A stretch of DNA of 64,000 nt from a virus. How positions within the stretch are numbered: the stretch's first letter is position 1; each line of letters opens with the position of its first letter. Shown here one piece after another: positions 10,948 through 35,057 of this stretch. The stretch covers positions 34,238 through 98,237 of the IMG/VR virus record IMGVR_UViG_3300021185_002756. One strand, written 5' to 3'. The notes under the pieces were generated by a model, which ran no database searches, had not been told where the DNA came from, and was given only the letters and a program-made list of their open reading frames with translations. The position numbers and the translations under genes are program-made.

Positions 10948-11377
10948 GATACAGTGCTTCGTCTAAATATTCGTTGTTAAGTTGCCAATCGTAGTAGCCC
11001 TCTTGTAGTTGATCTACATAACTTGGTGCTGGTGCTGAATAACTCAACGGTGGATTCATATCATATGCCATAAATGAATCGCCATCTTGTTCTAGCCACA
11101 TTTTAGTATAGTAATGCGGAAAGCCTTCAAATGCATCTAGGTTTTGTTCACATTCGTGTGTGATATTCCACAAGCATCCTGGAACTACTGATCCTTTAGC
11201 TGGCTCTATTGTTGCGTGTTGACAAAATACCAAACGCCAATCTCGTAAGTATAAGGGTGCTATTGGTACTGCCTGTGGACAACGCCACTTCATTGATTCA
11301 AGTGCCATGTTTGCCCCATAGGCAAAGTAAAGCCTAGTTGGTCTTTGTAATAGATTTGATTTCAATACCTTCACCAT
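10934..11377 (-). CDS. Gamma-glutamylcyclotransferase (AIG2/GGCT-like)
   Basis: LYFAYGANM...RCP...ATI...VPGCLW...LDAFEGFP..Y. Confidence 0.88.
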   Translation of the reverse strand: MVKVLKSNLLQRPTRLYFAYGANMALESMKWRCPQAVPIAPLYLRDWRLVFCQHATIEPAKGSVVPGCLWNITHECEQNLDAFEGFPHYYTKMWLEQDGDSFMAYDMNPPLSYSAPAPSYVDQLQEGYYDWQLNNEYLDEALYHGIG

Positions 11378-12755: not shown

Positions 12756-12903
12756 CTTTTATCTTTCTACTTATAATGTCATGCTCATCTGGGTTGTTTC
12801 GTCTCCATTCTCTATCCTTGTACCAATCATATAAAAAAGAATACAGTACACCACAAAACAAACACAAGCCAATGCCACTTGCTATGTTAATCGCGATATC
12901 CAT
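12739..12903 (-). CDS. Small membrane protein
   Basis: Likely start MDIAINI at a TGATG overlap; one TM helix plus charged tail. Confidence 0.55.
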   Translation of the reverse strand: MDIAINIASGIGLCLFCGVLYSFLYDWYKDREWRRNNPDEHDIISRKIKDDFTK

Positions 12904-13124
12904 CAAGCAAATACATCCATGATAAACACATAAGCACCATAGGCATATAACATTACACATGGTGTGATAATAACATAGTTTGGATCGTGAAACTTCTTTA
13001 TAAACTTCATCATAGGTTGTCTCCTGGTGTGTGTGATTGATAACCAATAAGGCAAGTTAAGTGTAATATAGAATGCTATCACTATTGATAGCAAACCTAA
13101 GCCTAATATTATACCTGTGCTCAT
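12903..13124 (-). CDS. Small membrane protein
   Basis: Two hydrophobic segments; ATGA overlap with the ArfA-like ORF. Confidence 0.55.
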   Translation of the reverse strand: MSTGIILGLGLLSIVIAFYITLNLPYWLSITHTRRQPMMKFIKKFHDPNYVIITPCVMLYAYGAYVFIMDVFA

Positions 13125-13243
13125 TTTATTGTTTGTTTCTTTCTGTTATATGAACCTTTGCCCTTTTTACTCGCAACAACGGCGGGCTTGATTGTTCTAA
13201 CCACTCGTGCTATTGGGTTCATTGGTTTCGTTTGCTTTTTCAT
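13121..13243 (-). CDS. arfA: ArfA-like alternative ribosome-rescue peptide (not in ORF track)
   Basis: MKKQTKPMNPIARVVRTIKPAVVASKKGKGSYNRKKQTIK carries the KKGKGSYxRK ArfA signature; stop overlaps next ATG. Confidence 0.6.
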   Translation of the reverse strand: MKKQTKPMNPIARVVRTIKPAVVASKKGKGSYNRKKQTIK

Positions 13244-14929: not shown

Positions 14930-14997
14930 TTCTCCTATTTTCTAACTGTACATACAGTATAACACACTATTACTCTTTGTCAACCTTTTTATTACTT
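14930..14997 (-). promoter_or_regulatory. Early promoter+RBS cassette
   Basis: AAAAAGGTTGACA-N16-TATACTGTATGTACAGTTAGAAAATAGGAGAA. Confidence 0.92.
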
Positions 14998-15162: not shown

Positions 15163-15230
15163 TTCTCCTATTTTCTAACTGTACATACAGCATAACACAG
15201 TCTACGATATTGTCAACCTTTTTATTACTT
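15163..15230 (-). promoter_or_regulatory. Early promoter+RBS cassette
   Basis: AAAAAGGTTGACA-N16-TATGCTGTATGTACAGTTAGAAAATAGGAGAA. Confidence 0.92.
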
Positions 15231-15481: not shown

Positions 15482-15545
15482 TTCTCCTATTTTCTAACTG
15501 TATATACATATTAACACAGTCTACACTATTGTCAACCTTTTTATA
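15482..15545 (-). promoter_or_regulatory. Early promoter+RBS cassette
   Basis: AAAAAGGTTGACA-N16-TAATATGTATATACAGTTAGAAAATAGGAGAA. Confidence 0.9.
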
Positions 15546-34091: not shown

Positions 34092-35057
34092 TTAGAAGGA
34101 TGCACTAACTTTGAATTGTACTACTGAACCATCATCATCAGTCGATGCTTCTCCGCCGTTCTTGTACTCGTAGTCTGTGTAGTTCACATAACCAGTTAAA
34201 CCTGGAGCAATAGCATATTTAAGTTCAGCCATATGTTGCTTCAAGTTTTCTTTTTCTGTGCCTGAAACATCTAAACTGTCTTCTGATTCCATTGTTGAAA
34301 CTGCAATAGTCATAGTGTCATTAAGTTTGTAACTTGCACCAGCACCTACTGTGTCAATGTCTTCGTCAGCACCTTCTACTTTACTCATTGCACCAATCAC
34401 AGTAATATCACCTAATGCAATTTTTGCACCAATACTGTGTGATTCATTATCAACTGCACCAGATACACCTTGTTCGGCCATAGTAGCACCAATAGTAATA
34501 TTGTCGCCGATTGCTAATTTAGCACCTAATGCTGTAGCATCAGTATCGCCTGCAACACCACCGTCCATGTAACTTGCGCCTACTGTAAGTGGACCCATTG
34601 ATGGAGCAATGTATGATATTTTGTCTGAATCAGAACCGTATGCTTTTTCACCAGCACTTGATTGTATAGAAGAATCAGTGTATGTACCACCTACTTCTTC
34701 ATCCATGATATCATGCTCGCCTATGCCAAAACTTCCTGTTACATCATCGTTTCCGCCTAATGTAATTTTACCAAAGTCACCTTTGATGTACAGTGATGAT
34801 TCGTCAATCTTTGCATCTGAATCTGCAACAGTTGTCATTTCAACAACCATACCATAATCTAATCCAGTTTCTGTTTTATTTGAGAATGTAAATTTAATTT
34901 CGTTATCGGAGTTGCCCATTGAATCACCTTTTTGTGATGCAATTTGCGAGTCAACATCCTTGTAGTAAAACTCTGAAGTACCAGAGATTGTAACGTCTGC
35001 TAATGCAGTCGTACTAAGCAGTGTAGCTATCACTGCTAATGGGGCTAGTTTTTTCAT
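34092..35057 (-). CDS. Gram-negative outer-membrane porin
   Basis: Signal peptide MKKLAP...ALA; DVTISG, GDFGKITLG, DKISY.AP, YAIAPGL, terminal Phe; very acidic. Confidence 0.9.
   Translation of the reverse strand: MKKLAPLAVIATLLSTTALADVTISGTSEFYYKDVDSQIASQKGDSMGNSDNEIKFTFSNKTETGLDYGMVVEMTTVADSDAKIDESSLYIKGDFGKITLGGNDDVTGSFGIGEHDIMDEEVGGTYTDSSIQSSAGEKAYGSDSDKISYIAPSMGPLTVGASYMDGGVAGDTDATALGAKLAIGDNITIGATMAEQGVSGAVDNESHSIGAKIALGDITVIGAMSKVEGADEDIDTVGAGASYKLNDTMTIAVSTMESEDSLDVSGTEKENLKQHMAELKYAIAPGLTGYVNYTDYEYKNGGEASTDDDGSVVQFKVSASF

Follow-up and report, generated by a model that had tools for sequence, protein, structure and literature searches.

ArfA (YhdL; PDB 5MDV, 5MDW, 5U4I, 5H5U and 5MGP) is the RF2-dependent alternative ribosome rescue factor of gamma- and betaproteobacteria, and in ArfA-type release the released peptide stays untagged. 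By published accounts, the ArfA pathway is limited to certain beta- and gammaproteobacteria. The functional elements of ArfA are a helix (residues 15-24), F25 and a strand (Q27-E30) which is added to the beta-sheet of RF2, and a basic tail located in the mRNA channel; 46-48 residues have been modelled on the ribosome by cryo-EM (PMC8012679). The mRNA of cellular arfA is cut short at a hairpin ahead of the stop codon, and ArfA therefore accumulates only once tmRNA is overwhelmed, and the full-length protein carries an aggregation-prone hydrophobic tail (PMC8012679). The A18T variant of ArfA binds and recruits RF2 yet cannot activate it, and E. coli ArfA shortened to residues 1-40 shows no activity (PMC8012679).

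ArfT of Francisella tularensis is a 40-aa cellular protein with its own stop codon and no regulation by non-stop mRNA, and is a proven rescue factor working with RF1 or RF2 (PMC6299226). BrfA of Bacillus subtilis is small and RF2-dependent; its basic tail lies in the mRNA channel and it contributes a beta-strand to RF2. BrfA is translated from a non-stop mRNA, places an N-terminal helix between the subunits, carries a KH motif and is considered evolutionarily unrelated to ArfA (PMC6881298, PMC8012679). In phages, ArfA-domain genes are already known as annotations, with a rescue function presumed: gp30 of HTVC027P, which is reported to be highly transcribed both early and late in SAR11 infection (PMC12753301), and g10 of Citromicrobium phage RXM (PMC8953757). 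A survey of arfA using nucleotide HMMs found the gene in 0 of 2,376 Alphaproteobacteria (PMC11633108).

The present study concerns a 64,000-nucleotide stretch of viral DNA (the window), positions 34,238 to 98,237 of IMG/VR record IMGVR_UViG_3300021185_002756, in which a first-pass annotation, made from the letters alone, had proposed a hidden ArfA-like rescue peptide.

The ArfA-like gene and its surroundings

The 98-kb source record has a CheckV completeness of 28% and a G+C content of 38%, and carries ribonucleotide reductase, DNA ligase and tail-spike-like genes. The low completeness and the gene content together indicate that the record is a fragment of a large phage. No match to GenBank phages was obtained for the region by megablast or blastn, the 706-aa neighbour gave no tblastn match among phages, and the tblastn matches of the DNA ligase were to Bacillus-type phages only, with identities of at most 36%. 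No close GenBank phage relative was found, and this uncultured marine phage was given neither a cultured relative nor a host. A search of the 98-kb record for tRNA, tmRNA, Rfam families and RF-1 domains found none of them, and because the available 28% of the genome holds no release-factor gene, a host factor is assumed in the following.

The first-pass annotation had described a basic 40-aa ORF containing KKGKGSYNRK, coupled to the next gene and ending at its own stop codon without a hydrophobic tail. All of this was borne out. The ORF lies on the minus strand (Table 1), starts with ATG and has an in-frame TGA after codon 40, which overlaps the ATG of the following gene as ATGA. The peptide holds 10 Lys and 3 Arg and no Asp or Glu. 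It had escaped the annotation that the gene begins 47 nt inside the upstream 102-aa gene. A weak purine-rich stretch precedes the start codon and no clear Shine-Dalgarno sequence was seen. Met8 was considered as the start codon and rejected; the first ATG was taken as the start because relative P0003 has Ile at residue 8 and because a short basic leader stands before N-P in every member.

Table 1. Features of the ArfA-like locus, in window coordinates.
Feature	Position	Strand	Basis or remark
ArfA-like gene, 40 codons + stop	13121..13243	-	ATG start; Pfam ArfA E 1.5e-5, conservation, hhalign 97.5%
KKGKGSYNRK, residues 26-35	13139..13168	-	putative counterpart of ArfA K33-K42 in the mRNA channel; alignment to PDB ArfA chains
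I18-K19-P20-A21-V22-V23	13175..13192	-	proposed equivalent of F25 and the RF2-docking strand Q27-E30 in ArfA
NPIA motif, residues 9-12	13208..13219	-	start of predicted helix; N9 aligned to ArfA N14
Dual-coding overlap, 47 nt (end of upstream gene, start of ArfA-like gene)	13197..13243	-	conserved at 47-50 nt in 23 metagenome contigs
Upstream gene, 102 aa	13197..13505	-	always adjoins the ArfA-like gene in this phage clade
Downstream gene, 73-aa hydrophobic protein	12903..13124	-	its ATG overlaps the TGA of the ArfA-like gene as ATGA
Sigma-70-like promoter matches, three (TTGACA, 16 nt, TG-extended -10)	14956-14983, 15189-15216, 15508-15535	-	consensus matches

The overlap with the upstream gene was analyzed in 23 contigs (L134-L151, L153, L155, L157-L159). 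Variability at third codon positions within the overlap was 0.13 in both frames, compared to 0.24 and 0.27 outside it, and this suppressed variation is the pattern expected of genuine dual coding. The 102-aa upstream protein had a full-length identity of 59-97% in the 23 contigs. It matched no Pfam family, its PHROG matches were weak and an Atlas search was uninformative.

The three sigma-70-like matches lie upstream of the run of small minus-strand genes to which the ArfA-like gene belongs. They hint at candidate early promoters as far as consensus matches go, and the total number of promoter matches in the sequence was not above that of shuffles. The T4-type late promoter TATAAATA was not enriched, and none was found upstream of the ArfA-like gene of the window. 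Three relatives lacking the 102-aa gene (L152, L154, L156) have a T4-type late-promoter-like TATAAATA 8-10 nt before the start codon of the ArfA-like gene.

Relationship to ArfA

The sole Pfam match of the window peptide was to ArfA (PF03889), covering residues 22-37 with a score of 24.8 bits, which is 0.7 bits below the gathering cut-off of 25.5 bits. When PF03889 was run over the entire 98-kb record a single match was obtained, at this locus, with an E-value of 7.4e-6. All of 31 diverse phage members matched ArfA at E <= 0.01, the best at 1.3e-11. A phmmer search of the PDB with the single peptide found nothing; the family profile alone succeeded. At E-values from 3e-7 to 4e-6 it retrieved six different sequences of E. 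coli ArfA, and the entries after them were non-significant at E ~0.5. The phage profile was also compared by hhalign to a profile of 20 cellular ArfAs from 401 sampled Pseudomonadota genomes, 37 of which had the family. A probability of 97.5% and an E-value of 7.9e-12 over 39 aligned columns were obtained, with residues 4-40 of the window peptide corresponding to ArfA residues 9-47. The proposal of an ArfA-family peptide in a phage was therefore upheld by the Pfam, PDB-profile and profile-profile matches. BrfA was absent from all search results of this analysis.

AlphaFold2, run on the family alignment, predicted one helix at residues 10-18 with a pLDDT of about 80 and an extended conformation for the rest. 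The predicted helix coincides with ArfA helix 15-24. The N-terminal part, which the annotation had described as divergent, is not unrelated to ArfA, since the profile-profile alignment reaches ArfA residue 9 and the predicted helix matches that of ArfA. Judged from the alignments, the homology covers the functional core of ArfA, namely the helix, the RF2-contact strand and the channel tail.

The family signature consists of a basic leader, N-P-[IV]-A-[KRQ], a helix, hydrophobic-basic-x-x-[VI]-V, x-x-KKGKGSY-x-R-[KN], a short basic tail and a stop codon. K26-Y32 and R34 were invariant across the 31 phage members, each of these columns being written with 2-5 synonymous codons, and KKGKGSYNRK is identical in 9 of 10 positions to KKGKGSYMRK of the E. 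coli ArfA chains in the PDB. N9 and P10 were likewise invariant in the phage family and A12 nearly so. The hydrophobic-basic-x-x-V-V segment is conserved in the phage family and aligned to ArfA F25-R-Q-R-V-E, the register of I18 being an inferred one. It had been claimed that the KKGKGS motif of ArfA both binds the channel and recruits RF2. Channel binding by KGKGS agrees with the published work, but recruitment of RF2 is the task of residues 15-31 and not of the motif (PMC8012679, PMC6299226).

In several respects the window peptide resembles ArfA. Both are small basic peptides with one short helix, predicted in the case of the window peptide, the K-K-G-K-G-S-Y-x-R-K tail is identical, and both have a hydrophobic residue and a V within the RF2-contact segment, a putative one in the window peptide. 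In other respects the two differ. The gene of the window is phage-encoded and has 40 codons and a stop, whereas ArfA has 72 codons and a non-stop mRNA. The N-terminus of the window peptide is about 5 residues shorter, its helix-to-strand linker is 2 residues shorter, also compared to most family members, and the KH motif, a feature of ArfA and BrfA, is absent. There is neither a hydrophobic tail nor an RNase III or terminator hairpin: no hairpin was found before the stop codon, with a fold z-score of -0.07, and no terminator-like site precedes the stop on the minus strand. Synthesis from a non-stop mRNA is a feature that concerns regulation and not activity.

A further difference is at Ala18, which is nearly invariant in the 20 cellular ArfAs. 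In the window peptide Arg13 occupies this place; if the alignment is instead anchored on the A-L-L that some relatives have, Val14 does. Across the phage family this column holds Lys, Arg or Gln. Considering the behavior of the A18T variant, the substitution is, on the alignment as it stands, the key question for the function of the phage family. Concerning length, the last residue of the window peptide, K40, is located at ArfA position 47, close to where the ordered part of ArfA stops in the cryo-EM models, and some 37-aa close relatives end 4 residues after the Tyr, at about position 44.

By its published description, ArfT shares several features with the window peptide. Both have 40 residues, their own stop codon and a basic KGKGS-like C-terminal stretch. 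ArfT differs in being a cellular gene, in having KKGGSTNKK in place of KKGKGSY and in its use of RF1 or RF2. The ArfT precedent establishes that a peptide of such size and regulation can rescue ribosomes. BrfA resembles the window peptide in its small size and, as far as the proposed mechanism goes, in RF2 dependence, channel tail and added strand, and differs by its non-stop mRNA, its inter-subunit helix and its KH motif.

An ordinary stop codon is also present in several cellular homologues of ArfA (L102, L103, L108, L110, L111), whose C-termini read ...KAA, ...MAA, ...QAA or ...LLLAA. These termini resemble the end of the ssrA tag and may, to go by their sequence, represent another way of keeping ArfA low.

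Conservation and selection

A scan of metagenome contigs yielded 30 loci. About 26 related marine contigs keep the ORF, 23 of them syntenic; in these 23 the entire block of small genes is syntenic and the ArfA-like ORF is intact in all, with a length of 37-48 aa. At least 119 viral contigs of IMG/VR encode relatives. The closest of these, L002, has the ArfA-like ORF alone in common with the window and none of the neighbouring genes, and the conserved and selected unit is therefore the peptide and not its neighbours. When 1.84 billion representative proteins were searched with the profile, 960 clusters reached E <= 1e-3, and the best 150 of these matches were 34-110 aa long, most of them shorter than 70 aa. 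In a scan of genome contigs one locus was confirmed, the confirmation being by the window peptide alone.

Codon usage was compared within two length classes of the family, comprising 24 and 25 distinct DNA sequences. In both classes differences at third codon positions were 2-3 times those at positions 1 and 2, and invariant residues had as many as 5 synonymous codons, with both codon families in use for Ser. Purifying selection at the codon level points to translation of the ORF. On this comparative evidence we hold with high confidence that the ORF is a genuine ArfA-family gene.

Distribution in phages and Alphaproteobacteria

Members were found by tblastn in the cultured phages HTVC027P, CRP-2, CRP-9, CRP-212, CRP-603, Cr30, HMO-2011 and vB_OspM_OC; that of Cr30 is at positions 11142-11261 of its record. 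The hosts are Pelagibacter (HTVC027P), Roseobacter (the CRP phages), Caulobacter (Cr30), Puniceispirillum (HMO-2011) and Ochrobactrum (vB_OspM_OC), all of which are Alphaproteobacteria. One more weak tblastn match was to a Methylophilales phage, and searches with single peptides produced only weak tblastn matches among phages.

The gene of the window belongs to the same NP-x-A ... KKG[KR]GS[YF] subfamily as HTVC027P gp30 and shares with it an own stop codon. While the window gene encodes the bare core, gp30 has 58 aa with a 24-residue N-terminal extension, W-D-G-R-S-R ... W-x-R-I-F. Furthermore, gp30 overlaps the start of the small terminase gene, whereas the phage of the window is much larger and its gene has another genome context. 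The 24-residue extension, W-D-G-R-S-R ... Y-R-E-S-W-D-R-I-F before the core, is a common marine variant, seen in the L028-L071 group (for example L032:1259-1462) and in HTVC027P gp30 (L164:1489-1665).

Other arrangements were also observed. In ten loci (L004, L005, L008, L011, L013, L019, L020, L025, L027, L044) the NP-x-A...KKGKGSY module is at the N-terminus of Lys-rich marine viral proteins of 142-249 aa, the last ~60 residues of which match phrog_17747; the module may therefore be a general binding module. Members on four viral contigs (L016, L023, L026, L074) have a hydrophobic C-terminal tail past the basic stretch, as in cellular ArfA. Such tailed members may reflect a cellular type of regulation, or the contigs may be host-derived.

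The phage-type gene was also present on chromosomes: of 401 genomes sampled from the class to which a Rhodospirillaceae MAG belongs (Alphaproteobacteria), 15 carried it; examples are L115, L116 and L118 (genomes G503, G652 and G762) and L083/L117 and L084/L130 (G001). In two 1.2-Mb genomes of about 29% G+C the mini-ArfA gene lies just after a photolyase-related DPRP gene, among housekeeping genes. In view of these chromosomal copies, the published count of zero arfA genes in Alphaproteobacteria probably means that the short form was overlooked. The two 1.2-Mb genomes and a third small one, all alphaproteobacterial and 1.2-1.3 Mb in size, have only two RF-1-domain genes each, and thus no ArfB was found in them. 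By hand count, with the unpublished G622 and G438 included, a third RF-1-domain gene was present in 2 of the 15 mini-ArfA genomes as against 122 of the 386 others. Complementarity with ArfB was considered as a line of evidence and set aside: the direction is the expected one, but the signal was judged too weak and genome size confounds it.

Proposed function and alternative explanations

Release factor-dependent ribosome rescue by an ArfA-like mechanism is regarded as the most likely function of the window peptide, a proposal about which, arguing by homology, we are evenly divided. In its favour we count the ArfA homology and the predicted helix, the selection on the peptide and its recurrence in L002, the ArfT precedent, the reported transcription of HTVC027P gp30 and the chromosomal copies in the small genomes in which no ArfB was found. 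By this mechanism, when a ribosome has run to the 3' end of a broken mRNA and stalled, the basic KKGKGSY-R-K tail would enter its empty mRNA channel, and the short helix of residues 10-18 would be placed at the decoding centre. The hydrophobic-basic-x-x-V-V segment would then join domain 2/4 of a class-I release factor of the host (RF2, or possibly RF1 as with ArfT) as an additional strand, and the recruited factor would hydrolyse the peptidyl-tRNA. Since the gene ends in a stop codon of its own, with no hairpin before it, and encodes no hydrophobic tail, the peptide would escape tmRNA-dependent repression and be made whenever the operon is expressed. The phage could gain extra rescue capacity as mRNA is degraded or as defence nucleases cut RNA; we infer this benefit, as we do the binding to ribosomes, the partner among the release factors and when the gene is expressed. 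Counted against rescue were the replaced Ala18, the absent KH motif, the linker shortened by 2 residues, the short tail after the motif, the Pfam score of the single peptide below the gathering cut-off and the occurrence of the module at the N-terminus of longer basic proteins.

The replaced Ala18 leaves room for the possibility, which we consider unlikely, that the peptide fills the mRNA channel and the A site without activating a release factor and competes with tmRNA-SmpB or with host rescue factors. Phage products might then be kept untagged, or shutdown of the host might be aided. The channel motif shows perfect conservation, whereas a bulky Arg, Lys or Val occupies the Ala18 position, A18T ArfA recruits RF2 without activating it (PMC8012679), and a synthetic peptide of the SmpB tail inhibits trans-translation (PMC8012679). 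However, the conservation of N9, P10, A12 and the V-V strand equals that of the tail, which suggests a partner beyond rRNA; the copies on chromosomes of free-living Alphaproteobacteria are hard to square with a pure inhibitor, and trapped ribosomes would cost the phage translation capacity of its own. Charge alone could account for a 40-residue peptide that has 13 basic residues and lacks acidic ones if it were a generic nucleic-acid binder for condensing, packaging or chaperoning, having only a basic tail in common with ArfA. This we find rather improbable: a charge-only peptide has no need of an invariant G-K-G-S-Y and N-P, the similarity to ArfA extends over 39 columns and beyond charge to the helix and the strand, and in the PDB profile search ArfA alone was significant. 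The fusion of the N-terminal module to long Lys-rich proteins with a phrog_17747 end, as well as the position of the HTVC027P copy next to the small terminase gene, fit a nucleic-acid binder.

The tightly packed operon, with ATGA towards the next gene and an overlap with the previous one, would also be compatible with an ORF whose translation delivers ribosomes to the downstream membrane-protein gene and whose peptide has no function. The ATGA junction is, however, kept in just 9 of 26 related contigs, the others having different overlaps or spacers of up to 319 nt, and the ORF recurs with wholly different neighbours in L002; together with purifying selection on the amino-acid sequence this makes such a role highly improbable. 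It is hardly credible that the ORF arose by chance and is untranslated, even though it is very short, is preceded by the weak purine-rich stretch only and overlaps a real upstream gene. Against chance stand the HMM match over the whole record, the 960 clusters of relatives in 1.84 billion proteins, the synonymous turnover and the Ile8 of P0003, which marks the first ATG as the conserved start. Both a functionless coupling ORF and a chance ORF are contradicted by the selection data from the sequence comparisons.

A wider proposal, put forward tentatively and with a good deal of doubt, is that the stop-bearing NP-x-A mini-ArfAs of about 37-50 aa form a distinct, unregulated and always-on class of rescue factors in marine Alphaproteobacteria and their phages, missed so far by surveys of rescue pathways. 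Phages would use them to keep ribosomes available as mRNA is destroyed in takeover, or to reverse the stalling that RNA-cutting defences bring about; or else the peptides, Ala18 being replaced, could be natural inhibitors of trans-translation.

Significance

The gene of the window adds little beyond the published phage annotations; its value lies in the family-wide picture and in a clean test peptide that is easily synthesised. New in the present analysis are the homology across the entire functional core and not the tail alone, the extent of the family, its connection with Alphaproteobacteria and their phages, the dual-coding overlap and the Ala18 substitution. If active, the 40-mer would, like its 37-aa relatives, rank with the smallest release factor-dependent rescue factors in nature, and these peptides would define a minimal ArfA core. 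The family would show that a short, unregulated form of ArfA exists in Alphaproteobacteria and is spread by phages. Provided that the peptides are active, ribosome rescue would be a process that phages supply themselves, beside tRNAs and other parts of the translation machinery.
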